A stretch of DNA of 64,000 nt from an uncultured Gammaproteobacteria bacterium (GCA_964590105.1 CAZPYM010000001.1:160395-224394), one strand, 5' to 3'; shown: positions 1,380 to 13,352, counted from the first letter of the stretch. A program made the numbers and translations. Notes: generated by a model from the letters alone, not told the origin.

Positions 1380-2078
1380 TTACTTTCTGCTTGTTTTCGA
1401 GTAAGGGGGAATTTCGTTTGAGTTTGGAACCAGTCCCGTGTTGTCGTTTGAGTGTTCCTTTTCGTATTCTCGGTGATATGGGAAAGCGGGATATTCGATA
1501 AAGTTGACCGCTTCATGGGTGTTGTAGCAGTTCGCTTTGGCTTTGCTTAACAGAAAAAATTTTCTTTTCACTGCCCGCCGTCTGATGTTGTCGTCTTTTA
1601 AGTCCTGAAGTTCGAAATACGAAACCATGAACAAAACATGAAACATGTTTTTCACTTCGGCGAAGTGCTGACCCAAATCCCTGATTCGCTTGTCGATGTT
1701 CGAGGTGTGCTGAACGCCCGCCCAAATGTCCAAAGGAATAATTTTGCCGTCTTTGTCTTTTTTGACATCGTGCCTGTGAGCCGAAAACTTCTGCTTGGCC
1801 GAGGGTGGCATTTCCTGCCATTCTCTCGAGTCGAAGTAGCCTTGAGCCTCGTCTATAAAAATTTGCCCGCCTTTTATATGAAGAAGCTCGGGAATTTCCG
1901 ACCAGAAATACACTTTGCCCAATTTCGCTTTATCAATCTTTTTCTTTTCCACATACTTGGAAAAATCCAGTTTCCAGTTGGCGTAAACATCGTAGCCTTT
2001 CAAAAACATTTCCAATGCTCGGTAAGTCATGTAAAGCGTTTTTCCGGCTCCGGGTTTGCCCGTGATGATCGTTATCAT
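1380..2078 (-). CDS. Zot/pI-like P-loop NTPase (filamentous phage assembly ATPase family).
   Basis: MITIITGKPGAGKTLYMTY is a Walker A, and there is a Walker B-like IFIDEAQ. Its position after the pIII/pVI-like genes matches inovirus gene I. It is shorter (232 aa) than classical pI and lacks a TM tail. Confidence 0.65.
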   Translation of the reverse strand: MITIITGKPGAGKTLYMTYRALEMFLKGYDVYANWKLDFSKYVEKKKIDKAKLGKVYFWSEIPELLHIKGGQIFIDEAQGYFDSREWQEMPPSAKQKFSAHRHDVKKDKDGKIIPLDIWAGVQHTSNIDKRIRDLGQHFAEVKNMFHVLFMVSYFELQDLKDDNIRRRAVKRKFFLLSKAKANCYNTHEAVNFIEYPAFPYHREYEKEHSNDNTGLVPNSNEIPPYSKTSRK

Positions 2079-2088
2079 AATTATTTGT

Positions 2089-2334
2089 TTAAGCCTTAAA
2101 GAAAGTGGCGACTTTCATTACCAGAGTAAACAGGAATAAAGTCATTTCCACGAAAAGAACGAGAAGCAGTATCTTGAACAAAACGAATATCGGGAATATC
2201 AGGTCTATTTTTGCGAATGTCGGATTCATCAGAGCGAAAGCGTTATTGACCGCCGTAATGACGGCGTTGCTCGGGTCTGCTTCGGGCAGAAGCCCGAAGA
2301 GTTTAATCAAGATTGTTTCGATGAGATCAAGCAT
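2089..2334 (-). CDS. pVI-like small hydrophobic minor virion protein. Positional call.
   Basis: An 81-aa, largely hydrophobic protein between the pIII-like and Zot-like genes, matching inovirus gVI placement. Confidence 0.4.
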   Translation of the reverse strand: MLDLIETILIKLFGLLPEADPSNAVITAVNNAFALMNPTFAKIDLIFPIFVLFKILLLVLFVEMTLFLFTLVMKVATFFKA

Positions 2335-2339
2335 ATTGG

Positions 2340-4013
2340 TTATTCGTTATCGCTAAAGAGGTGCGTAATCCGAAAGATCACATACACAGCGAACACCAGC
2401 CAAAGAATGGCCACGATGTAAGGACGAAGGCCGGCTGTAAAGTTCTTGACTCTTGAGTCGCTCGCGGAAAATATTTTTACATCCATGTTATACTCGCCGT
2501 CGCCAGAAACCGACTTGAATGTAATGTCGAGGGCGTTGTCGGAAGCGTCCGCATAATCGCCGTTAAACATGTCATAAAACCCGTCGTGAAAAGCGAAGTA
2601 ATAATTGAAGATGATTTTTTTCTTGAGTTCCTCGACCAAACGGGGAAAGAAATAATCGTAATCATCGGGGTTGTAGATAAAGTCCAAATCGGAAACATAA
2701 ATCCCGAACGGATATTGTCTTTTCATTTCGCCCGATTCGGTAAGCTGGACGACATAGTGCAGTCCCTGTTCCTCCGAAGCCTCGAAGTTGACCGTGTAAT
2801 TCCAAGTGTCCGGCATATCCGCCAAATCTTCGTTGTGATAGTTTGCGTCAAGAAGATTGCCGTCGGAGTCATACTGCTTAATGTTGAAATTCATGTTGGC
2901 AAGCTGTTCTTCGGGATAGACAAAGCCGAATGTTATGTCGGCATAAGTCGATCCCGCTGGTAGAGTCAGAGCCGTGTCGAAAATCGGCGAATGAATTTTG
3001 ATGTCATAGTCGTCATAATAATCGAAGTTGAAATACCAGTCGTCGGGATAGCCCTCGATGACTTCGATTCCGTCGACCTCGATAAAATCCATAAGCTCGT
3101 CGTAGTCCACACAGTCGCCCGAAACGCTGTCGATTTCTCTCGCAATAATTCTGTCAGTCAGTCCGCTTTTGTAGAACTGTCCCGAAAATGTCCCGCCCGT
3201 GCAGGCGACCGTGTACTGAATGTCATCAAATCCCAAACAGTCGCTCGTAAATCCGATTCGGTTGGCGCCGTCGGTCGGACATACGCCCTCTATGGTCAGC
3301 CAAGTGTCGTCGATCACGACTTCGCCGTGTTCGGGACTGGAAATGTAAAACGGTGGAGGATTGTTTGACTGAAACAATACATCGTCGAAATAGCCGTAAT
3401 TCTGATCGTAGTTTTGCAGATTCAGATCAACAATGTTCGTGGTTTCGGGGGTAATGCTCACGGGAAAATCGTAATAAGCGGAATACTCGCCGTCGTTTAC
3501 TTTCGCCCGGCATTTTCTGTTTTCAAGATCGTAGTTGACGGTAATGGTCGTCCAAGTATTTGATGTGAATGTTCCGACCGTTGTCGTTCCCTCACCGTGC
3601 AGAAGCTGAACAGTGTTGTCATAGGTTTTGGTCATACAGACATCCATGCTGTTCTCATTTCGGGGACGAAATTCCATTCTTTGCGTATTGCCTCCGCTCA
3701 CACTGCTTTTGTAAAAAGCAAATGAGATCGAGTCCGAATAATCCAATAAATTCGTCCCTATCGTGTAGTGAATAGAACTGCTGTAAGTGCCTCGTTTCGA
3801 ATACACGCTTTTTTGCCCGGATAAAGCTTGTGCCGTCGAAACGGTCGCGGAGCCGTAAACCACAGTCCAATCGCCCTGCCCGTTAAGGTCGCCGACTGAA
3901 AATCCCTCGAAATCTTGATTTGTCCAAGTCGAAGCTAAAGCCGACATTGGAAACAGTACGGAAGCGGTCAGCAATAAGATCGACATTATTTTTAGTTTTG
4001 TATTTCCTTTCAT
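2340..4013 (-). CDS. pIII-like receptor-binding/adsorption minor coat protein. Secreted, with a C-terminal membrane anchor.
   Basis: I chose the start at ATG 4013 (MKGNTKLKIMSILLLTASVLFPMSALAS signal peptide) with AAGGA 8 nt upstream; the ORF-track start at 4052 is a TTG. It is rich in D/Y/N/G, and the C-terminal TM is RPYIVAILWLVFAVYVIF. It sits directly downstream of the major coat gene, as inovirus gIII does. Confidence 0.5.
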   Translation of the reverse strand: MKGNTKLKIMSILLLTASVLFPMSALASTWTNQDFEGFSVGDLNGQGDWTVVYGSATVSTAQALSGQKSVYSKRGTYSSSIHYTIGTNLLDYSDSISFAFYKSSVSGGNTQRMEFRPRNENSMDVCMTKTYDNTVQLLHGEGTTTVGTFTSNTWTTITVNYDLENRKCRAKVNDGEYSAYYDFPVSITPETTNIVDLNLQNYDQNYGYFDDVLFQSNNPPPFYISSPEHGEVVIDDTWLTIEGVCPTDGANRIGFTSDCLGFDDIQYTVACTGGTFSGQFYKSGLTDRIIAREIDSVSGDCVDYDELMDFIEVDGIEVIEGYPDDWYFNFDYYDDYDIKIHSPIFDTALTLPAGSTYADITFGFVYPEEQLANMNFNIKQYDSDGNLLDANYHNEDLADMPDTWNYTVNFEASEEQGLHYVVQLTESGEMKRQYPFGIYVSDLDFIYNPDDYDYFFPRLVEELKKKIIFNYYFAFHDGFYDMFNGDYADASDNALDITFKSVSGDGEYNMDVKIFSASDSRVKNFTAGLRPYIVAILWLVFAVYVIFRITHLFSDNE

Positions 4014-4079
4014 AAATATCCTTTTAAGACGAAAGCGGGGGCTTTTGCCCAAAGTAGTGGCAAGCCCCCGCCGTCAGGC

Positions 4080-4349
4080 CTATCGCATGAAGCGTCTTGC
4101 CAATCGCCAGACGAAGCCGATTGAGAAGATGATCACACCCACAATCACGATGTTGGTGATATTAGCGGTGATAACACCGACAATGTTCTCTTTCATCGTG
4201 TCCACCACACTGGCGGTGGTTGCGGCGACATCCGTGTCAACGGCCGCGAAAGCGGTTGATCCCGCCAACAGTCCGCCTGCTACCGTAAGTGAAAGGGCGG
4301 TCAGTTTGGCCTTGCTTCCCGAGATTAAGCCTTTGATTTTGGTCATCAT
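4080..4349 (-). CDS. Inovirus major coat protein (pVIII-like) precursor.
   Basis: An 89-aa precursor with a signal peptide ending ...STAFA. The mature ~54-aa peptide has an acidic N-terminus, a hydrophobic core (IVIVGVIIFSIGFVW) and a basic C-terminus RLARRFMR, which is the classic g8p architecture. Confidence 0.6.
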   Translation of the reverse strand: MMTKIKGLISGSKAKLTALSLTVAGGLLAGSTAFAAVDTDVAATTASVVDTMKENIVGVITANITNIVIVGVIIFSIGFVWRLARRFMR

Positions 4350-4354
4350 AAGTT

Positions 4355-4507
4355 TTATGAGTTAATTTTTTTAACGAATAACGATAGTACGCCGACCACT
4401 GTCCCGATTATCAGACCGAGGACAATCGCTTTAGCGAAGACGGTTCCTATTAAAAGGAAATCATCCAAGTAGCACGAATTGTTCAGTAAAATATAAGCGG
4501 AACACAT
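4355..4507 (-). CDS. Small hydrophobic virion/assembly protein (pVII/pIX-like). Not in the ORF track (<60 aa).
   Basis: My manual translation gives MCSAYILLNNSCYLDDFLLIGTVFAKAIVLGLIIGTVVGVLSLFVKKINS (50 aa). It is packed 5 nt upstream of the major coat gene. Confidence 0.35.
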   Translation of the reverse strand: MCSAYILLNNSCYLDDFLLIGTVFAKAIVLGLIIGTVVGVLSLFVKKINS

Positions 4508-4508
4508 A

Positions 4509-4619
4509 CTATTTGCCCGAAATAATCGCTAAAAAAATGCTCAAGACCGTGTATAAAACAAGAGGAAAAACGAGGCTCAATCCCACTCCGGCGAATAAAT
4601 TGTTTATCATTCCTGCCAT
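4509..4619 (-). CDS. Small hydrophobic protein (pVII/pIX-like), 36 aa.
   Basis: My manual translation gives MAGMINNLFAGVGLSLVFPLVLYTVLSIFLAIISGK. It lies 1 nt from the neighbouring mini-ORF. Confidence 0.3.
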   Translation of the reverse strand: MAGMINNLFAGVGLSLVFPLVLYTVLSIFLAIISGK

Positions 4620-4621
4620 AT

Positions 4622-4774
4622 TTAGGATTTGAAAATAATCAGGAGGATTATCAACGCCAGCAGTCCGAAGATGACCGCAAATGAAACCGTCAGCAGTTGG
4701 CTGAAAAAATTGATTAAATCCAACGCTTGATCGGTCAGAGCGTATGTTTCGGTTGCCGTTGTAAGAAAATCCAT
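4622..4774 (-). CDS. Small hydrophobic protein (pVII/pIX-like), 50 aa.
   Basis: My manual translation gives MDFLTTATETYALTDQALDLINFFSQLLTVSFAVIFGLLALIILLIIFKS. It lies between the pV-like and coat genes. Confidence 0.35.
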   Translation of the reverse strand: MDFLTTATETYALTDQALDLINFFSQLLTVSFAVIFGLLALIILLIIFKS

Positions 4775-4777
4775 AGA

Positions 4778-5041
4778 TTATTTTTTGTTCGGGATATAGT
4801 AATCCGCGAAAGCCCGCTTTCGTTTCTTGTCCTGAATGTAGTAAGGGAAGATAGACACATTTAAAGACACAGTGTCGCCTTGTTTTCCGATTTTCAAGTC
4901 CATATCGGACACATTAACTTTAATCGGATAGACGCTTCCTTCGGGTTCGATAAAAAGCGTCCGGCTTTTTCCTTCACTCCCGTCTTTGCGGGTGAATTCC
5001 CTTATCTCCTCTTTTTTGAGGACTCCTGTAAGTTTGAACAT
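4778..5041 (-). CDS. Putative ssDNA-binding protein (pV-like, OB-fold-like).
   Basis: An 87-aa protein (the same size as Ff g5p). Its beta-rich pattern includes G/K residues and a conserved aromatic (VYPIKVNV...VSLNVSIFPYY). It is first in the phage structural gene string, as gV is. Confidence 0.4.
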   Translation of the reverse strand: MFKLTGVLKKEEIREFTRKDGSEGKSRTLFIEPEGSVYPIKVNVSDMDLKIGKQGDTVSLNVSIFPYYIQDKKRKRAFADYYIPNKK

Positions 5042-5206
5042 AACTTTTTTGGCTTTTGGTTAATTAGCTCGCAATCGACCTTTTATATTTGCGATTATGT
5101 TTCAAGCATAGAAAATCAATATTCTGAAAAGTTCAGGTAGCCGTTTTCAGAACAATAAAAAAAGCCCCGAATTAAGGGACTTTTACGGTCTTGTTTTTTA
5201 GAATTT

Positions 5207-6013
5207 TTACAGGTATTTACGGTTCAGTTTTACCTTGCCTTTTTTGCCGGTATTGAATTTAAGAAAATCTTTAATGCCGACGGCCTGTTCGATTTTCTTG
5301 TTCAATTCCGCACAGGAGTTGTTGTATTTTTTCCAGTTGTTTTTGTTGGCTTTGTATTCGAGTTCGCCGAATTCGTCCTCGGCGATTTCCGAATAATAAA
5401 AATCGTCGGTCAGATTGTCTTTGTTGGTTATGAAAATATAGTGCAGTATTTTATGGGCGTTCGTTATTTTATCCTGTTTGCTTATCCTGATTTTGTTTCC
5501 TTTAAAGTGAAGTTCGCTTTTGTCTTCATTGAAAAAAGTTTTTTCGTCCTTGTCGTCGCCGTTTAAAAAACACTCCTGATCCAGTCGGTCGAAAATTTCG
5601 CTGTTTACAACTTTGAACGACAAAATCAGCATTTGCTTAGAATAGGGTTTTGAAAAAAGATGACAAAGTGCGCTTAATTCTTCCTTATCATAAGTTCGAC
5701 ATTTCCTCATTTTCTTCATTTTTCCGTAGATTATTTCCAGATTGCTGTAATATGTCCAAAACTCATGCGAAAAAATAGCTTTGCCTTTGACATCGAGAAA
5801 TTTGTCCTCGTCCATACAGTCATCGGGTTCGCCGATGATTTTCGCCGTGTCATCGAATATGCTTTGAAGGATGTTTTTAACGAGCGGGTCGGTGTTAAGG
5901 AAGTAAATGTATTTGTAAACGATAACAAACCGCTGAAAAAAGTTCCGTTCGATCGAAAAAAGACGAGCAAACTCGTTCATCTTTTCTTTGATGTTTTGAG
6001 CGGTAAACTGCAT
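5207..6013 (-). CDS. Hypothetical protein (268 aa from the first ATG; the ORF-track start at 6070 is a TTG).
   Basis: Long ORF with no recognisable motif. It lies between the YjzC-like minigene and the phage module. Confidence 0.4.
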   Translation of the reverse strand: MQFTAQNIKEKMNEFARLFSIERNFFQRFVIVYKYIYFLNTDPLVKNILQSIFDDTAKIIGEPDDCMDEDKFLDVKGKAIFSHEFWTYYSNLEIIYGKMKKMRKCRTYDKEELSALCHLFSKPYSKQMLILSFKVVNSEIFDRLDQECFLNGDDKDEKTFFNEDKSELHFKGNKIRISKQDKITNAHKILHYIFITNKDNLTDDFYYSEIAEDEFGELEYKANKNNWKKYNNSCAELNKKIEQAVGIKDFLKFNTGKKGKVKLNRKYL

Positions 6014-6073
6014 GGCTTTGGGGTATAAAAATGCTTTTTGTTCACAGAAAAGCCAGCAAGAGTGAGTCAAAGT

Positions 6074-6244
6074 TTATCGGTTTTTATGCTTTGTCCTGTC
6101 GACAAGTGTAAAAACCTTAGCTTTGCCGTCATACGGAGGAACACGGTCTCCGCCCGAGAGAGTGATCTCTCGTTTTGTGCCGGTCGGTCTGTACTGACCT
6201 GACACTTTCGCGGTTTGACCCGTCCTGACTTTTACCTTAGGCAT
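6074..6244 (-). CDS. YjzC-like small protein (56 aa). Not in the ORF track.
   Basis: My manual translation gives MPKVKVRTGQTAKVSGQYRPTGTKREITLSGGDRVPPYDGKAKVFTLVDRTKHKNR. The pattern G..A..SG.Y...G.....I.L..G...PP resembles the YjzC family. Confidence 0.35.
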   Translation of the reverse strand: MPKVKVRTGQTAKVSGQYRPTGTKREITLSGGDRVPPYDGKAKVFTLVDRTKHKNR

Positions 6245-6421
6245 AAGTTTGAGGTTAGGTGAATTAGAAATAGAAGCGTCCGACTTTAATCCGCTCCCAA
6301 CTCTGAAAACCTGAAACAGATTTTCAAAAGGAGAGCGATTAAAGTGAGCTAGGCTAAATCATTTTTCACAGCCCCCAAGCTTATTCTCTCGCTGGCTTTA
6401 CTGAAAACAAATTGTAAAATT

Positions 6422-7021
6422 TTATTTTAAATTTCTTATAATTTTTACAACTACACCCCTTATTTCAATTTCTTTTCTATACATCGGTTTATATGTCGGA
6501 TTAGCCGGTTGCAGTCTAATGTTGTCTGTTTCCTTGTAATATTTTTTTAATGTTGCTTCGTTGTCTTCCAGTACGGCCACTATTGTGTCGCCGTTTTCAG
6601 CCGTTTCTTGTTTTTTTACAATTATGATGTCGTCGTCGAATATACCGTCGCCGATCATGGAGTCGCCCTTTGCCCGCAAAGCATAAAGATTTCCTTTAAG
6701 CATAGGTTCTCGGGCTATTCTTACGGTTTCATCTTGTTCTTCAACAGCTTCAATCGGGCTACCGCAGGCAATTACTCCTTTTATGGGTATTTCAAGGTAT
6801 TGGTTTCTTTTTTTAGGCAAATACAAGCCCCGCTCCTTGCGTTCGTCTTTGGCTAAATATCCTTTATCCACAAGCTCGGTTATATGTTCATGCACGGTTG
6901 AGAGGGCGGACAGCCCGAATTTTTCGCCTATCTCTTCATAAAACGGGGAATAACCGTGTTCCTTGATGTATTTGGCGACGAAGTCCAATATCTGCTTTTG
7001 TCTTTTAGTCAGGGTATTCAT
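6422..7021 (-). CDS. lexA: LexA-family repressor (wHTH + S24 peptidase).
   Basis: An N-terminal LexA-type wHTH (LTKRQKQILDFVAKYIKEHGYSPFYEEIGEKFGLS...) is followed by a C-terminal S24 domain with catalytic GDSM Ser and a downstream Lys (ATLKKYY). It is about 199 aa. Confidence 0.8.
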   Translation of the reverse strand: MNTLTKRQKQILDFVAKYIKEHGYSPFYEEIGEKFGLSALSTVHEHITELVDKGYLAKDERKERGLYLPKKRNQYLEIPIKGVIACGSPIEAVEEQDETVRIAREPMLKGNLYALRAKGDSMIGDGIFDDDIIIVKKQETAENGDTIVAVLEDNEATLKKYYKETDNIRLQPANPTYKPMYRKEIEIRGVVVKIIRNLK

Positions 7022-7033
7022 ATGCTATTATAA

Positions 7034-7062
7034 ATTATACCCGAACTGTCCCCGAAGTGCAA
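7034..7062 (-). promoter_or_regulatory. Sigma70-like promoter for lexA (-35 TTGCAC, 17-nt spacer, -10 TATAAT, read on the minus strand).
   Basis: The reverse complement of 7022-7062 reads TTGCACttcggggacagttcgggTATAATttataatagcATATG. No clear palindromic SOS box was recognised. Confidence 0.35.
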
Positions 7063-7183
7063 CATGTAAAATTTGTGGACAAAGATAAATAAAAAGGCTA
7101 TAATTTAAGCAACAAATTAATATATTACTACAAAATTGCGGATGCTCTTGGCGTTTCGCTTGATGATTTAATGAAATAAAAAT

Positions 7184-7537
7184 ATGGAAATAATAAGTTT
7201 TATTATTAATATTGTTCAGGTCATCATTTCAGTACTTAGTTGGCCTTTCAGAAAAATACGAAATATTATGGAAATAAAAAAAATCAGAATAAAACAAAAA
7301 GCTGATCATTTACAGGATGTTAAAGGGATGAGTGTTGATTTGGGTAATGGTGAAAAGGTGCAAATAAACGATGTAGATATTGAGCAACAGGCCAAAACTC
7401 TACAAAATACAACGGGTATGGAATTTAAAGCAACAGGCAAGCAAGAGGCGGAATTGGAAAATATAGACATAAAGAGTCCGATTGGCAGAGTAAAAATTTC
7501 AAAGGGGGTAACTATTAACAAACAAGTGGATCAATAA
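7184..7537 (+). CDS. Hypothetical small protein (117 aa; could start at an internal Met). First gene of the MTase operon.
   Basis: Its ORF ends 3 nt before the methyltransferase start. No recognisable motif. Confidence 0.3.
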   Translation: MEIISFIINIVQVIISVLSWPFRKIRNIMEIKKIRIKQKADHLQDVKGMSVDLGNGEKVQINDVDIEQQAKTLQNTTGMEFKATGKQEAELENIDIKSPIGRVKISKGVTINKQVDQ

Positions 7538-7539
7538 TT

Positions 7540-8556
7540 ATGGCAATATCTTCAAATAAAAATTTACGCAGTGCTAATAAGGCAAAGAAAGATGAGTTTT
7601 ATACTCAGCTTTCAGATATTGAAAAGGAATTAGGGCATTATAAAGAACATTTTAAAAATAAAGTCGTATATTGCAACTGCGATGATCCGCGTGTGAGTAA
7701 TTTCTTTCATTATTTTTCTTATAATTTTGAAAGGTTAGGTCTGAAAAAGTTAATTACCACTTGTTATAAAAATCAGGAAGTAAATTTGTTTAGTCAAAAT
7801 AATTCTGAAAAAGCAATTTATTTGGAATACAAGGGAGATAAAAATGAAAAAAATGTTCCAGACATTGAAGAAATTGGGGTTAAACATTTAAGAAAAGATG
7901 GCGATTTTCGTAGTGAGGAAAGTATAGAACTTTTGAAACAAACCGATATTGTTGTGACAAATCCACCGTTCTCTTTATTTAGAGAGTATGTAGCACAACT
8001 CATGGAGTATGATAAAAAATTTATAATTATTGGAAATTTGAACGCATTAACTTATAAAGAAATATTCAAATTAATTAAAGAAAATAAGATGTGGTTAGGA
8101 GCGAGTATTCATAGTGGCGATAGAGAGTTTGGGGTTCCAAAAGATTATCCATTAACCGCCGCCAGTAGCAGGATTGATGAGAATGGAAATAAATACATTA
8201 GAGTTAAGGGGGTGCGTTGGTATACAAATTTAGATTATAAAGAAAGACATGAAAATTTAATTCTTTATAAAAAATATAAAGGACACGAAGACGAATATCC
8301 AAAATTTGATAATTACAATGCCATTAACATAGACGTGACAAAAGATATTCCAATGGATTATAAGGGTGCAATAGGTGTACCAATTACTTTTATGGATAAA
8401 TACAATCCTGATCAATTTGATATTATTGATGGCATAGGAAGATATAGCATGCTAACAGGGCCCACTGATAAAACAAGAGGAACTTATTTAACTAAAATTG
8501 ATGGTAAACCTAAATATGCACGAATTATTATAAAAAATAAGAAAGTTAATAAATAA
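7540..8556 (+). CDS. N6-adenine (amino-)DNA methyltransferase, EcoRI-methylase-like family.
   Basis: VVTNPPFSLF is motif IV (NPPF). The N-terminal KKDEFYTQ...KVVYCNCDDPRVSNFF...LGLKKLITTCYKNQ matches what I recall of the M.EcoRI family. That is a recollection, not a search. Confidence 0.65.
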   Translation: MAISSNKNLRSANKAKKDEFYTQLSDIEKELGHYKEHFKNKVVYCNCDDPRVSNFFHYFSYNFERLGLKKLITTCYKNQEVNLFSQNNSEKAIYLEYKGDKNEKNVPDIEEIGVKHLRKDGDFRSEESIELLKQTDIVVTNPPFSLFREYVAQLMEYDKKFIIIGNLNALTYKEIFKLIKENKMWLGASIHSGDREFGVPKDYPLTAASSRIDENGNKYIRVKGVRWYTNLDYKERHENLILYKKYKGHEDEYPKFDNYNAINIDVTKDIPMDYKGAIGVPITFMDKYNPDQFDIIDGIGRYSMLTGPTDKTRGTYLTKIDGKPKYARIIIKNKKVNK

Positions 8557-8560
8557 AATT

Positions 8561-9643
8561 ATGAAAATAGAACTTAAAAAAATTACAGTCAGTGAATTAA
8601 CTAACGGCTTTAAAGATAACGACGAAAACGGTGTTGTGGGTTATGGTGGCAAACTTGATATTCGCCCGCCTTATCAAAGAGAGTTTATTTATAAAGATAA
8701 ACAAAGAGACGCCGTTATTGACACTATCACAAGAAACTTTCCTCTAAATGTAATGTATTGGGCTGTGCGTGAAGACGGAAATTTTGAAGTAATAGACGGA
8801 CAACAAAGGACAATTTCAGCTTGCCAGTATGTTAATGGCGATTTTTCGGTGGACGGACTGGCTTTTCATAATTTAACAAAAGATAAGAAAGAACAAATTT
8901 TAAATTATGAATTGACGATATATTTTTGCTCTGGTACTGATAGCGAAAAATTGGAATGGTTTAAAATAATTAATATTGCTGGAGAAAGATTAACCGATCA
9001 AGAATTGAGAAATGCGGTTTATTCGGGTTCGTGGGTATCTGACGCTAAACGCTATTTTAGTAAAAATGGTTGTGCCGCTTATGGAATTGGTAGCGATTAT
9101 CTGAATGGCTCGCCAATTCGGCAAGAATATTTAGAAACTGCTATTAAGTGGATTTCTAATGGGAAAATTGAAAATTACATGTCAAAACACCAGCACGATC
9201 AAAACGCAAGTGCTTTATGGAGATATTTTCAAGATGTTATTACTTGGGTAAGTACAACTTTTACTAAAAAAAGGAAATTTATGAAAGGGGTTGAGTGGGG
9301 TACTCTTTACAACACTTACAAAGACGAAAAATATAATACGAAAGAAATTGAAGAAGAAACAGAAAAATTAATACTTGATGATGATGTAACAAAAAAGAGC
9401 GGTATTTATCCATATATTTTAACTCGCAATGAAAAATATCTTTCTATTCGTGCCTTTTCAGACGCTACCAAACAAAAAATATTTGAGAAACAAAAAGGAG
9501 TTTGCGTAGTATGTAAAGAAAAATTTGAAATTGAAGAAATGGAAGCAGATCATATTACACCTTGGCACGAGGGTGGCAAAACAACAGACAAAAATTGTCA
9601 GATGTTATGCAAAGAATGTAATAGACGAAAGTCTGGTAAATAA
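8561..9643 (+). CDS. DUF262 (ParB-like, DGQQR) + C-terminal HNH nuclease. Putative restriction/type IV-like endonuclease.
   Basis: The N-terminus has IRPPYQREFIY...EVIDGQQRT (DUF262/GmrS-like). The C-terminus CVVCKEK...ADHITPWHEGGKT...NCQMLCKECNRRK is an HNH with two CxxC pairs. Confidence 0.75.
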   Translation: MKIELKKITVSELTNGFKDNDENGVVGYGGKLDIRPPYQREFIYKDKQRDAVIDTITRNFPLNVMYWAVREDGNFEVIDGQQRTISACQYVNGDFSVDGLAFHNLTKDKKEQILNYELTIYFCSGTDSEKLEWFKIINIAGERLTDQELRNAVYSGSWVSDAKRYFSKNGCAAYGIGSDYLNGSPIRQEYLETAIKWISNGKIENYMSKHQHDQNASALWRYFQDVITWVSTTFTKKRKFMKGVEWGTLYNTYKDEKYNTKEIEEETEKLILDDDVTKKSGIYPYILTRNEKYLSIRAFSDATKQKIFEKQKGVCVVCKEKFEIEEMEADHITPWHEGGKTTDKNCQMLCKECNRRKSGK

Positions 9644-9650
9644 AAATTCA

Positions 9651-12600
9651 ATGCTTGAGACCTTAAAAAATAAAATACTAGCAAGAGTTACCGAATGGCG
9701 GCGAGAGCAGTCATTATTTAAGGCTGTACAAGCAGAAAAAAAGATAACTCCAAGTATAAAGAAAATTATTAATAAAGACACAAAACCTCTTTGGTTTTCT
9801 CTTTGGGAAGCCACAATCGTTGTAGCTTTATTTATTTTTTTCTTGATTTTGACGCACGCCCAGACACTTTTCCCATACGAAAAATTTATTGAATTTATGG
9901 AATGGCTTTATCCATTTCAAGGAAGTCCATTCGCACTAACAGACGGCAACCATTATCAGAATTTAATCGCAATACATGCTGGTATAGGTGCGGTTCTTAT
10001 TGGTTTAGCTTTTTTTCTTGCTCAAGAGATCGCAAAAGAAAAAAATAAAGAAGGTTCATACAAAGGATTTGTCATATTACGCAGAACTCGATTTTTCACT
10101 CTTTTACTAGCTGAGATTTTATTTTTCTTTATTTTCGCTTGGGGGTCAGTAAATATCTTGGCAACTATTCCAGTATTTTTAATAGGAATTTTTACCCTTT
10201 ATTCTTTATATAATGCCTTACACTTAATTTTTGATAACTTTGAATTAAAGAAGGAAGAAAAAAAGATATTTTCTGCTAGTTTACATAATAGTTTTCTGAA
10301 AGTTTTAGATTTAGAAATTACAAAGCTAATTGGCGACAGTCAACTACGCAATCTATCAAAGGATTATGAAGGGTTTATTGAAATAACCCCATTTTCTCCT
10401 GTTAATAAACAAAACTACACACCTATTAAAACAAATAAGTCGGGTATATTTACTAACTTAAACCTGAAAACATTAAAAAATTTATTAACAAAGCTTGAAG
10501 AGAAAGCTCCAATGGAAAACGAAGTAGCCACAATGGGTTCTGCCCCTCAAGCTACAATATCTAATCCAAGAACGAGAAATCCTTATTGTTATTTATCGCC
10601 ACGCTTCTTTTCTGATACTAAAGAAGTAAATGATGTGCTTCTTTGGGTTCGAAATGATCTGTTAAAAGATGAGGAAGTTGCAGGCGAGGTTAAAGAACTT
10701 ATACGCAAAGCATTTACAATAACAAAGCTAGATTTTGATTTAGAGCATGCACGAAACGATATAAGAAAATTAAAACTTCTTTCTTTGGATTTAGTAAAGG
10801 ATCAGAGAGGTGATGAACTAAGTGAAGTTTTAAATAATTATACAAAGCTCATTGAGGATTTCTATTCATATTTGGAACCATACGGCGGAGGCTTTTCAGA
10901 AAAGCAAGCCCACGATATGTCTATGGAGATATTTTTCGGAGGACTCAAACCCGTGGCATGGATAAGTGAGGATATTCGGGAAATATTTGAGCGAGGCATT
11001 GAATCTGATAGCAAGGAAATCATTAAAGAAGTTGCTTATCTTCCCGTGCGTTTAATACGATACGCCATTGATTATAAAGACCACTTGATTTTTCAACAAT
11101 TTCAATATTATCCATTTAGACTATATCAAGCTCATGTAAATGCGAAAAAAGCAGGAAAGGATGAATTGGCTACTTTTCTTTTTGATAGATCTTGGCGTTA
11201 TCTAAAAGAAATTTCTGATTATTACTTAGAGCCCAAACTGAAAAAAGATGAAGATTATCCAGAAGAAGAGGTGCGTAATTTTGCATGTGCGATCCTAAAA
11301 ATATTCCAAGGATTGCTTAAAAACTCTTTTGACGAAAGAGATGTTGAAAGTTTTAAAACATACCTATCAACAGCCAGTGGTCTTTTTAGACATTTAGATA
11401 TTACAGATCGTTATGAGAACGAAAAAACAGAGCAGATCGCAGATTTTCTTAAGAACAAAAAGAATGAAATGCTATTTGGTCTTGCCAGCTGGATTTTTTA
11501 TAAACTTGCTCAAAATAAAGACGAGGAAGTAGTTAAACAATTTTATAATGTTATTCAGAACTCCACTCCCTCAAAAATAGAGGAACTCACAAATATATTT
11601 TCTCGTACGCATAGTTTTGAAGTGGAAGATTTTTGGGGGTGGGATAATTGGGAAATGTCCGAAAAAGGAGAGGGGCAAGTACACTCAATACAAATTCTCG
11701 AGAAGTTGGAAAAATTTTACGCGATTAGATCACTTTCTCTTTTATCAGCAAAAAGTAATGAAGAGATTGAAAAAATAGAATTACCACATTCAAGAGATTT
11801 GGCTTATTTAGCAGAAGGCACAAGAGATTTAGTGAAAACTCTCGATGATATCAAAACAAACCCTAAAAACTGGCACTTTGTTTTGAATGATAATTCTATA
11901 AACAAAGTTGATCTGCTAAAAGCTTTACTCACTAAAGCAAAAGAAGTGCAGGAACAAGAAGAAGTGGAACTTAAGAAAGAACAAGCAATTTCACAAAAGC
12001 GAGTACAGGAATTTAAAAAAGAAGTATTGAAGACTTTCTATGAGGGCGCAAATATGCGAGATATTTTTGCAAAACACTTCAACGCATACGAGGATAATAC
12101 AAAAGAGAAGACCGATAAAAAAGATCGATTTGGAATAAACATTGTTGACGATAAAGCATCATTCTTTGACGAGTGGCATGTTCACTATGTTGGTTGTGGT
12201 GAAAACTATGGTCGTGATCTCGCTTCTGGTGAAAATTCATATCTGCTTGATGACATGGCAAAAAATTGTACGGAAATTTCTAAAGAAAATTTTGAGGCAA
12301 CGCTGGCAAAAATTGAAAATTCAGACGATATAGTAATTTTTGCTACAAATATTGCATTTTGGCGATTTTTTGAAGACTCAAAGAACTTCAAGCCAAAGTG
12401 GCAGAGGGATATTGAACAACTTGATGTTAAGGGATTTGGTGGCTGGTATGACTTCAATGGAAAATCAATTCCTGTTTTCGAGACATATCACAGAAAGGTT
12501 GATAAACAGATTTTGATTTTGAACAAATCAAAAATTGGAAAATTTATTCAGTTGTCTCCGCTCAACGAAGAAGAGAAAGAAGAATCTATTGAGGATATTT

Positions 12601-12809
12601 TCTATATGGACATACAGGCATTTTCCGAAAACGAGGAACTGATGGAAGAATTTATCAAAAAACCGCCAGAATGGTTAAAGCAAATTGGAGACGAACAGAA
12701 ACAACGTGAACATTTACGAGAACGAGTTCGTATTCAGATTTTTGAAAGATTTCAGTATAACAAGTCAGAAGTTTTTGAGGGATACAAGCTATTTTTAAAA
12801 GAAGATTAA
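9651..12809 (+). CDS. Large (1052 aa) membrane-anchored protein of unknown function.
   Basis: I chose the start at the first ATG (MLETLKNK...), 8 nt after the HNH stop; the ORF-track start at 9525 is a TTG overlapping the HNH gene. It has 4-5 N-terminal TM helices and then ~800 aa of soluble sequence with no Walker or other catalytic motif I recognise. Confidence 0.5.
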   Translation: MLETLKNKILARVTEWRREQSLFKAVQAEKKITPSIKKIINKDTKPLWFSLWEATIVVALFIFFLILTHAQTLFPYEKFIEFMEWLYPFQGSPFALTDGNHYQNLIAIHAGIGAVLIGLAFFLAQEIAKEKNKEGSYKGFVILRRTRFFTLLLAEILFFFIFAWGSVNILATIPVFLIGIFTLYSLYNALHLIFDNFELKKEEKKIFSASLHNSFLKVLDLEITKLIGDSQLRNLSKDYEGFIEITPFSPVNKQNYTPIKTNKSGIFTNLNLKTLKNLLTKLEEKAPMENEVATMGSAPQATISNPRTRNPYCYLSPRFFSDTKEVNDVLLWVRNDLLKDEEVAGEVKELIRKAFTITKLDFDLEHARNDIRKLKLLSLDLVKDQRGDELSEVLNNYTKLIEDFYSYLEPYGGGFSEKQAHDMSMEIFFGGLKPVAWISEDIREIFERGIESDSKEIIKEVAYLPVRLIRYAIDYKDHLIFQQFQYYPFRLYQAHVNAKKAGKDELATFLFDRSWRYLKEISDYYLEPKLKKDEDYPEEEVRNFACAILKIFQGLLKNSFDERDVESFKTYLSTASGLFRHLDITDRYENEKTEQIADFLKNKKNEMLFGLASWIFYKLAQNKDEEVVKQFYNVIQNSTPSKIEELTNIFSRTHSFEVEDFWGWDNWEMSEKGEGQVHSIQILEKLEKFYAIRSLSLLSAKSNEEIEKIELPHSRDLAYLAEGTRDLVKTLDDIKTNPKNWHFVLNDNSINKVDLLKALLTKAKEVQEQEEVELKKEQAISQKRVQEFKKEVLKTFYEGANMRDIFAKHFNAYEDNTKEKTDKKDRFGINIVDDKASFFDEWHVHYVGCGENYGRDLASGENSYLLDDMAKNCTEISKENFEATLAKIENSDDIVIFATNIAFWRFFEDSKNFKPKWQRDIEQLDVKGFGGWYDFNGKSIPVFETYHRKVDKQILILNKSKIGKFIQLSPLNEEEKEESIEDIFYMDIQAFSENEELMEEFIKKPPEWLKQIGDEQKQREHLRERVRIQIFERFQYNKSEVFEGYKLFLKED

Positions 12810-12872
12810 TCCCGAAAATATAAAATATTTACAGCTATTTTTTTAATAGACCTGTAAATTTTCCACAATACA

Positions 12873-12901: not shown

Positions 12902-13112
12902 AACAAAAGCTCTTCACACTTAGTGAAGCGCTTTTGTTTTGACGAATAACCTTACAAATTAATACAACAGCCAGTGTTTTCAATTGATGTTATATTGTAA
13001 ATAAATAATCCCCTCTAAAAATTGACAAATTATAATTATGGGTATATACTCACTATAAAGATATCCAAAGGTCGAATAGCTAATCGTTATTAAAACATAA
13101 CCATACAAATGT

Positions 13113-13352
13113 ATGCCAAAAATGGATGGAACCGGCCCTGTCGGGCAAGGTGCAGGCACTGGACGAGGAATGGGCCCCTGCGGAGCTGGGAATAGATTGG
13201 GCCGAGGCTGTTGCGGAGGCTTCGGGCAAGGTCGCAGGAGATTTATTGCTCCTAAAAACGAGTTGTCCGCTTTAGAAAACGAGGAAAAAATGTTGCTAGA
13301 AGAGTTAGAAGTTATAAGGGCTGAGAAAGAAGCTCTAACGGTTCAAAAATAA
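13113..13352 (+). CDS. DUF5320-like small protein.
   Basis: MPKMDGTGPVGQGAGTGRGMGPCGAG... shows the Gly-rich MP.GDGTGP.G.GP.TGRG pattern of DUF5320 proteins, plus a C-terminal coiled coil. Confidence 0.5.
   Translation: MPKMDGTGPVGQGAGTGRGMGPCGAGNRLGRGCCGGFGQGRRRFIAPKNELSALENEEKMLLEELEVIRAEKEALTVQK

Follow-up and report, generated by a model that had tools for sequence, protein, structure and literature searches.

The window analysed here is a stretch of 64,000 nucleotides (nt) from an uncultured Gammaproteobacteria bacterium (GCA_964590105.1 CAZPYM010000001.1:160395-224394). It contains a block of four genes encoding a small protein, a DNA methyltransferase (MTase), a DUF262-HNH restriction endonuclease (REase) and a large membrane-anchored protein of an uncharacterised family, referred to as BIG (Table 1). 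The open reading frames (ORFs) bear out the initial annotation, in which the four co-directional genes had been described as one tight operon. All genes are on the + strand and are separated by 2, 4 and 7 nt; the spacers of 3, 5 and 8 nt given before were coordinate differences, so that their closeness stands and the values do not. BIG is counted here from an ATG, the longest ORF starting at a TTG at 9525. The GC content of the block is 30-34% compared to 40-45% in both flanks, and this low GC, together with a helix-turn-helix (HTH) gene truncated at 7132, points to an island. The locus is best read as a horizontally acquired low-GC island carrying two separable modules in one transcription unit. 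MTase, nuclease and membrane protein had been proposed to form one novel obligate system, which is not the case: the enzyme pair occurs without BIG, and BIG is found behind systems of Types I, II, IIS, IIG and III as well as on its own. The novelty of the locus lies in BIG, which, judged from its genomic neighbourhoods, is likely a new kind of anti-phage companion gene; the MTase/DUF262-HNH pair is not to be counted as novel.

Table 1. Features of the four-gene locus and its borders (positions in the window; aa, amino acids).
Feature	Position	Strand	Size or basis
Small-protein gene	7184-7537	+	117 aa
EcoRI-family N6-adenine DNA methyltransferase (modification subunit)	7540-8556	+	338 aa
DUF262 (GmrSD_N, DGQQR) + HNH endonuclease, restriction subunit of a Type II restriction-modification system	8561-9643	+	360 aa
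BIG, membrane-anchored, uncharacterised family, cassette associated with restriction-modification systems	9651-12809	+	1052 aa from ATG
BIG residues 49-193, four transmembrane helices, candidate effector module	9795-10229	+	hydropathy, conservation, AlphaFold2 helices
BIG residues 241-360, small α/β domain, candidate specificity module	10371-10730	+	AlphaFold2, conservation
BIG residues 361-810, all-α helical-repeat (solenoid) scaffold	10731-12080	+	AlphaFold2 secondary structure
BIG residues 811-1052, predicted HK97-fold (encapsulin or major-capsid-protein-like) α/β domain	12081-12806	+	
Promoter-like site TGGACA-17-TATAAT, candidate operon promoter	7076-7104	+	11/12 consensus matches
Remnant of an XRE-type HTH controller-like gene, last ~15 codons, YKIADALGVSLDDLMK and stop; left edge of the island	7132-7179	+	
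Hairpin with 16-nt arms (94% complementary) and 5-nt loop, then TTTTG; likely operon terminator	12902-12938	+	

Distribution, neighbourhoods and predicted architecture of BIG

A word-indexed search retrieved 75 homologs of BIG, mostly from Patescibacteria; the others came from bins labelled Spirochaetes, Atribacter, Clostridia and Gammaproteobacteria and from Exiguobacterium profundum. In an exhaustive profile search, 1585 clusters (50% identity) were found at E ≤ 1e-3 and 734 at E ≤ 1e-30, nearly all of them 1000-1200 aa long and aligning end to end. No relatives were found in IMG/VR or, by tblastn, in 50,697 phage genomes, which argues against BIG being phage cargo. A plasmid search returned one hypothetical protein of 1021 aa (L078, 6823-9888, plasmid pPg_05 of Pseudanabaena galeata), which is preceded by two PIN-domain genes and an unassigned 802-aa protein and resembles BIG in the HK97-like C-terminal part alone (tblastn, 28.5% identity, E 5e-18). 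On this partial match, it is a divergent branch of the BIG family on a cyanobacterial plasmid.

Neighbourhoods were compared in loci from species-representative genomes (31) and metagenomes (33), with more obtained by exact protein look-up; removal of duplicates at ≥95% BIG identity left about 54 loci with usable upstream sequence. A restriction-modification (R-M) system is located directly upstream of BIG on the same strand in about 31 of these 54 non-redundant loci. An EcoRI-like MTase and a DUF262-HNH nuclease precede BIG in the window, in L001 and its group (L032, L033 and L038), in L004 and in L066, and in about 25 more loci BIG homologs directly follow other R-M systems. The large protein is therefore not an incidental neighbour, a point on which the initial annotation had made its proposal depend. 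In L060, BIG is found about 3.6 kb after the EcoRI-like/DUF262-HNH pair, with four genes between. The other upstream systems comprise DpnII (L007, L020 and L039), HpaII (L052), a MutH/Sau3AI-like protein with C5 MTase and Vsr (L010), the Type IIS system AlwI (L009 and L012), Type IIG (L016, L046 and L059), Type I (L011, L022, L024, L043, L048, L068 and L082) and Type III systems (L013, the L015 group, L029, L045, L056, L067 and L084) as well as an MTase with an unassigned partner (L002 and L006).

The linkage is directional. With a uniform method, DNA MTases were detected among 23 of the 76 nearest upstream proteins and among none of the 59 nearest downstream proteins (Fisher p = 6e-7). Many Res, HsdS and REase family members are also found among the nearest upstream proteins, while no R-M protein was detectable among the 59 downstream ones. 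The spacer upstream of BIG is mostly shorter than 60 nt (median approximately 12-26 nt) in R-M-linked loci and 150-600 nt long in loci without R-M.

Other neighbours of BIG include Shedu SduA_C, GmrSD_N, RhuM, Abi_C, AbiEii, NYN, PIN and DUF5677 proteins and serine recombinases. A solo BIG is located between housekeeping genes in Exiguobacterium, and a further BIG copy is carried, together with AbiEii and a serine recombinase, by a conjugative or integrative element; gene content suggests that BIG is carried on integrative or conjugative elements. Additional genes were observed around BIG in individual loci. Between R-M and BIG, or preceding them, lie a Shedu SduA_C-domain protein (L043, 6542-7753), a 1287-aa protein with no Pfam match (L048, 4048-7911) and a 598-aa GmrSD_N protein (L016, 3107-4903). 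A conserved 102-aa gene starts 5 nt after BIG in the closest relatives (86%; L001 4755-5063, L032 4442-4750 and L033 4699-5007) and is absent from the window, where the terminator hairpin comes after BIG. Large serine recombinases (Resolvase + Recombinase + Zn_ribbon_recom) are encoded within a few kb of BIG in L008, L012, L017, L020, L022, L028, L035, L058 and L083, the last of which also has RepL-like and TraG/TrwB-like genes near BIG.

Modularity was compared within the clade of ≥63% identity to the window BIG. The upstream module in this clade is an EcoRI-like/DUF262-HNH pair in the window, L001 and L004, an N6_N4 MTase with unassigned genes in L002, a D12 MTase in divergent orientation in L034, an SNase-family nuclease in L035 and a DpnII system in L039. 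The BIG proteins of L002 and L034 are 77% and 74% identical to that of the window, their upstream genes are unrelated, and nucleotide homology with the window covers BIG only (9817-12813 and 9692-12805, respectively). Between the window and L066, in which the REase is 88% and BIG 41% identical, nucleotide homology runs no further than 9645, where the REase gene ends. These homology breaks and the swapped upstream modules argue that BIG is a discrete cassette recombining at the R-M/BIG junction.

No match to BIG was obtained in Pfam (E ≤ 0.1), NCBIfam or PHROG, so that its earlier description as a protein without recognisable motif is correct for these families; structure prediction, however, adds an HK97 capsid-like C-terminal domain. 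The AlphaFold2 model, calculated from a 70-sequence alignment, has a predicted local distance difference test score (pLDDT) of 86.5 and a predicted template modelling score (pTM) of 0.71. Four transmembrane (TM) segments are found by hydropathy (49-67, 105-123, 149-167 and 175-193), whereas the fifth helix allowed for in the previous count of four to five is not. According to the positive-inside rule, the N-terminus is predicted to be inside, with approximately 860 cytoplasmic residues. TM2 to TM4 are the most conserved part of the protein and contain the polar residues H109, E155 and N168 inside the membrane. In the model, TM4 continues into a stalk helix of 43 residues. The small α/β domain is the most variable part (entropy 2.41, identity to distant members 0.27) and includes a disordered loop at 290-308, while the solenoid gave only generic helical-repeat matches.

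The restriction-modification pair and its leader

The MTase matches Pfam EcoRI_methylase (PF13651, 3.3e-142; residues 8-334, profile positions 1-345) and, over its full length, PADLOC MTase_II (PDLC03297, 1.1e-132). The NPPF motif noticed before is present within VVTNPPFSLF. With 338 aa, the protein is shorter than most members of its 90% cluster (373 aa, compared with P0341); the difference lies in a replaced or shortened variable segment near the C-terminus, after ...NPDQF, the Pfam domain being complete, and this segment is possibly the target-recognition region. The nuclease matches Pfam GmrSD_N/DUF262 (1.3e-16) with DGQQR and HNH (PF01844, 7e-14), and also PADLOC REase_II (PDLC03418, 1.3e-133; protein 1-360, model 1-372). 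Both PADLOC models are REBASE-derived. The combination of a DUF262 DGQQR domain with an HNH instead of a DUF1524 domain had been recognised correctly, but the histidine spacing is HxxxxH and not HxxH (CVVC...DHITPWH...CKEC); the pattern CxxC...DH...N...CxxC is intact. More than 8000 matches at E ≤ 1e-20 belong to the nuclease family, and more than 120 clusters across several phyla share ≥81% identity with the query. Given the full-length PADLOC matches, the statement that the block corresponds to no named system fails for the two enzymes and remains valid for BIG. Judged by these matches, the pair is an ordinary, very abundant Type II R-M system and not a novel one.

An EcoRI-like MTase gene is located immediately 5' of the DUF262-HNH gene in L001/L032/L033/L038, L004, L060, L066, L071/72, L073 and L074-77. 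The exception is L079, where an AbiU2-like gene (1670-2377) is inserted between the two. The pairing is kept in nine distinct contexts, and the gene order with a spacing of a few nt recurs in many genomes. It is found without BIG in L073 (alone in a 4.5-Mb genome), in L071 (with an HTH gene, a T5orf172 gene and, at 3808-7292, DUF2130 and a 729-aa protein), in L074 (with an unrelated 582-aa protein, 7099-8847) and in L079 with the HEPN/AbiU2-like insert just mentioned. Judging from gene order, the 3' end and the interior of this R-M operon are a docking site for variable genes. The 582-aa protein of L074 was also considered as a truncated BIG and rejected, as it gave no match to the hidden Markov model.

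The window copy resembles other EcoRI-family/HNH Type II R-M systems in the full-length enzyme matches, the MTase-REase order and the HTH gene found upstream in relatives, and differs from them in nothing essential. The window copy shows a truncation of the HTH gene to 15 codons, the 117-aa membrane-protein gene in the leader and a shorter variable segment of the MTase. The nuclease also has features in common with the Type IV enzymes GmrSD, BrxU and SspE (DUF262 + DUF1524), namely an N-terminal ParB-like DUF262 domain (DGQQR) and a C-terminal nuclease of the His-Me type. In the window nuclease, however, the latter is a classical zinc-ribbon HNH (PF01844), and no DUF1524 match was obtained. 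Furthermore, GmrSD Type IV enzymes are stand-alone without cognate MTase, whereas the window-type nuclease is MTase-paired in every locus examined. The strict pairing, together with an HNH domain where GmrSD-type Type IV enzymes have DUF1524, speaks against an assignment to these enzymes, and the pairing itself implies that cleavage by the DUF262-HNH protein would be blocked by modification rather than dependent on it.

Upstream of the pair, the HTH remnant shares 93.8% nucleotide identity with L066 (2341-2388) and 88.7% with L079, in which the HTH gene is intact and ends with KKIADALGVSLDDLMKK before the stop codon. HTH_3 genes are also found upstream of R-M in L071 and L084, and in L066 the same HTH tail directly abuts the MTase gene. 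The regulator gene was apparently lost from the R-M copy of the window. The 117-aa protein encoded between remnant and MTase contains a single N-terminal TM helix (residues 1-19) and has no match in Pfam, PADLOC or PHROG. A copy in L079 is 93% identical, with 22 nt differences and a ratio of nonsynonymous to synonymous substitution rates (dN/dS) of 0.13, for which reason the gene is regarded as real. In L079 it is located between the XRE-type HTH gene and a different R-M allele (MTase 51% and REase 63% identical), downstream of which no BIG is found; it is absent from L066, L004 and L038. The gene order in L079 and the HTH remnant in the window argue that the small gene belongs to the R-M leader and not to BIG. 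Two other assignments were rejected: homology to a 117-aa gene before BIG in L057 (BLASTP E 0.31), and a split-off N-terminus of the MTase, since the MTases align at their N-termini and differ in length in the C-terminal variable segment.

Possible roles of BIG

A role of BIG in defence is consistently suggested by the company it keeps, its place in operons, its behaviour as a cassette, its presence on mobile elements and its low GC. Our preferred reading, which we put at slightly less than an even chance, is that the island stacks a conventional Type II R-M system and an independent accessory protein, BIG, serving as a second line against phages. The N6-methyladenine (m6A) MTase would mark host DNA and the DUF262-HNH nuclease would cut unmarked incoming DNA, with the now-truncated HTH controller-like gene and the small membrane protein as the putative R-M leader. 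The BIG cassette is added by recombination to the 3' end of R-M operons, whatever their type, and phages escaping restriction through existing methylation could then be caught late in infection. Attachment to Type I, II, IIS, IIG and III operons suggests a general, type-independent backup of restriction. Such an R-M companion may matter especially in Patescibacteria, for which few defence systems have so far been described.

To our knowledge, the HK97 fold has so far been encountered only in the capsids of viruses and the shells of encapsulins. HK97-fold subunits are made to oligomerise with like-folded subunits, and for this reason the capsid-like domain of BIG probably engages phage head-assembly proteins; alternatively, it may oligomerise itself when these proteins are present. 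BIG could in this way be organised as sensor, transducer and effector, with the HK97-fold domain at the end of the solenoid arm, the variable α/β domain and stalk helix, and the TM bundle. Either the conserved TM bundle would receive a signal through solenoid and stalk, with loss of membrane integrity (abortive infection), or capsomers would be trapped at the membrane and head assembly poisoned. Capsid sensing and a membrane effector role are inferred from the predicted structure, and the capsid-mimic mechanism as such is doubtful. It is likewise less likely than not that BIG, as a membrane-anchored immune protein with a domesticated capsid-like domain serving as mimic, founds a class of cellular HK97-fold proteins of its own, the third beside phage capsids and encapsulins. 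If true, BIG would be a new exaptation of a capsid protein and would bear on the relationship of viral and cellular HK97-fold proteins, and structural mimicry of the virion shell would be a new defence principle.

Proteins that sense or interfere with virion assembly are CapRel-SJ46, Lit and Avs and, by capsid remodelling, the satellite proteins Sid, CpmB and TcaP. The likeness of BIG to these and to Tai, a tail-assembly inhibition system (PMC11364771), is conceptual only and concerns phage structural proteins as the point of attack; none of them uses a membrane-tethered HK97-fold domain of its own, and none is homologous to BIG. Encapsulins and HK97-fold major capsid proteins (7bcv, 9bhu, 2e0z, 1ohg and 1yue) share only the predicted fold with BIG. 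Similarity at the sequence level was not detected (Pfam, PHROGs and PDB profiles negative), BIG is not a member of Linocin_M18 (PF04454), Phage_capsid (PF05065) or DUF1884, and its HK97 domain is fused behind approximately 800 residues of membrane anchor and solenoid. Unlike those of phage capsids, the BIG neighbourhoods are without portal, terminase, scaffold or head genes. The closest architectural precedent is provided by Family 3 encapsulins with C-terminal MFS-like (major facilitator superfamily-like) TM helices (Andreas & Giessen 2021, PMC8346489), which like BIG combine an HK97 fold and 4-5 TM helices in one polypeptide, but have the reversed domain order, no solenoid and a biosynthetic gene cluster context and are detectable with Pfam Phage_capsid. 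Searches of the accessible literature on HK97-fold defence or membrane proteins and on R-M-linked membrane proteins yielded no description of the BIG family; two defence genes confined to Patescibacteria, LdgA and DdgA, whose fold is unknown (PMC12366544), may be relatives.

Several observations weigh against a second-line defence protein built on a capsid mimic. About 40% of the loci are without adjacent R-M, so that the linkage could reflect shared mobility or clustering in defence islands instead of cooperation; most loci stem from metagenome bins and short contigs, and loci of shared ancestry are not fully independent. The only match of BIG in PADLOC-DB 2.0.0 is a weak one to PtuA (E 1.4e-4, 19 bits), in the helical-repeat residues 731-835. 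The HK97 fold is a prediction with a sequence identity to capsid proteins of only 5-14%; a profile of the C-terminal domain found no capsid among PDB sequences, and there is no profile-level match of BIG to the capsid families in Pfam and PHROGs. The TM bundle has no similarity to known effectors, and nothing in it marks a pore. Moreover, the HK97 domain is fairly conserved, while a sensor of diverse capsids might vary more. The last point is what would be expected of a self-assembling unit, and hence fits an HK97-fold assembly tethered to the membrane that would serve the cell or the maintenance of a mobile element (as an encapsulin-like lattice, as a scaffold of the envelope or in exclusion), the R-M linkage then arising from joint mobility or from a site at which R-M cassettes preferentially insert. 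Such a non-defence role agrees with the serine recombinases and conjugation genes near several loci, with the loci without R-M and with the TM extensions of some encapsulins (PMC8346489). An enrichment that is both directional and operonic is nevertheless unlike the product of random island clustering, the neighbours are mainly R-M and other defence-type genes, and neither a cargo-type enzyme nor an encapsulin-type operon partner was detected among the loci examined; we regard this explanation as unlikely.

The strict 3' position behind R-M systems of all types and the membrane anchoring of BIG could also mean that it cooperates with restriction at DNA entry, marking or organising the place at the membrane where phage genomes are injected or DNA is taken up, with the capsid-like domain binding DNA or ejected phage proteins. 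The logic would be comparable to that of the membrane-bound nuclease SNIPE, and defence at injection by a membrane-localised system reportedly has a precedent (PMC13190303). It is, however, difficult to see how BIG could be a physical partner of enzymes as unlike as those of Type I, IIS, IIG and III, there are loci with BIG but no R-M, and no DNA-binding or nuclease domain was detected in it (Pfam, PADLOC and NCBIfam), which makes this role quite unlikely. The dissimilarity of the partners speaks in the same way against a guard of the PrrC or PARIS type, which would sense anti-restriction proteins or inactivation of the neighbouring R-M system and then kill the cell, as a sensed feature common to biochemically unrelated systems is not to be expected. 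BIG forms part of R-M operons, as prrC does of EcoprrI (PMC12707154), and with PrrC and the Abi, RhuM and AbiU2 inserts it shares a place within the R-M operon and a plausible function as second defence layer. It differs from them in being membrane-anchored, in its association with all R-M types and in its constant position at the 3' end. The ABC-ATPase-like N-terminal domain and the anticodon nuclease of PrrC, or any other nuclease, ATPase or PrrC/PARIS domain, are not found in BIG, and with solo copies existing as well, a guard function is very unlikely. An obligate multi-component system, in which BIG would be the dedicated partner of the nuclease together with the MTase and with or without the small protein, would account for the tight operon and for the adjacency of the three genes in L001/L038, L004 and L066 (nearby in L060). 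This reading is largely refuted by distribution and is the most improbable of all: the R-M pair is far commoner than BIG and occurs without it, BIG follows at least ten unrelated R-M types and is also found solo, and the recombination breakpoints are exactly at the REase/BIG junction.

Borders and flanks of the island

The promoter-like site upstream of the HTH remnant is the best one on the + strand in the region; it is a consensus match only, and the total count of such sites is not above that of shuffled sequences. An internal promoter ahead of BIG was considered and rejected, as only 9/12 consensus positions match and promoter-like sites are fewer there than in shuffles. The terminator-like hairpin, a strong one, lies 95 nt downstream of BIG. 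Around the island, neither direct repeats nor a duplicated target site were found that would be convincing.

The adjacency of LexA and of a prophage, both reported in the initial annotation, was supported. LexA, identified from its sequence, is encoded at 6422-7021 on the - strand, divergent from the operon. A LexA homolog adjoins the BIG operon in three separate loci, the window, L057 (approximately 6530-7126, - strand) and L009 (2101-2637); in L057, a single 507-aa ORF (5597-7120, - strand) comprises both the LexA-like region and an N6_N4 methyltransferase. The adjacency may be due to an insertion hotspot, SOS control or fusion. Support for the prophage is given by a Zot/M13-protein-I-like ATPase (1380-2078, - strand; phrog_197, 3.8e-18). 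The same strand carries the gene of a secreted or anchored protein of 570 aa (2340-4052) and an ORF of 87 aa (4778-5041), and together with the ATPase they look like an inovirus-type or filamentous-phage remnant within 1380-6250. On the other side of the island, host-like GC resumes at a 79-aa ORF (13113-13352), whose product may resemble DUF5320; it has a Gly-rich N-terminus (MPKMDGTGPVGQGAGTGRGMGPCGAG...) and a promoter-like site of its own (13022-13050).

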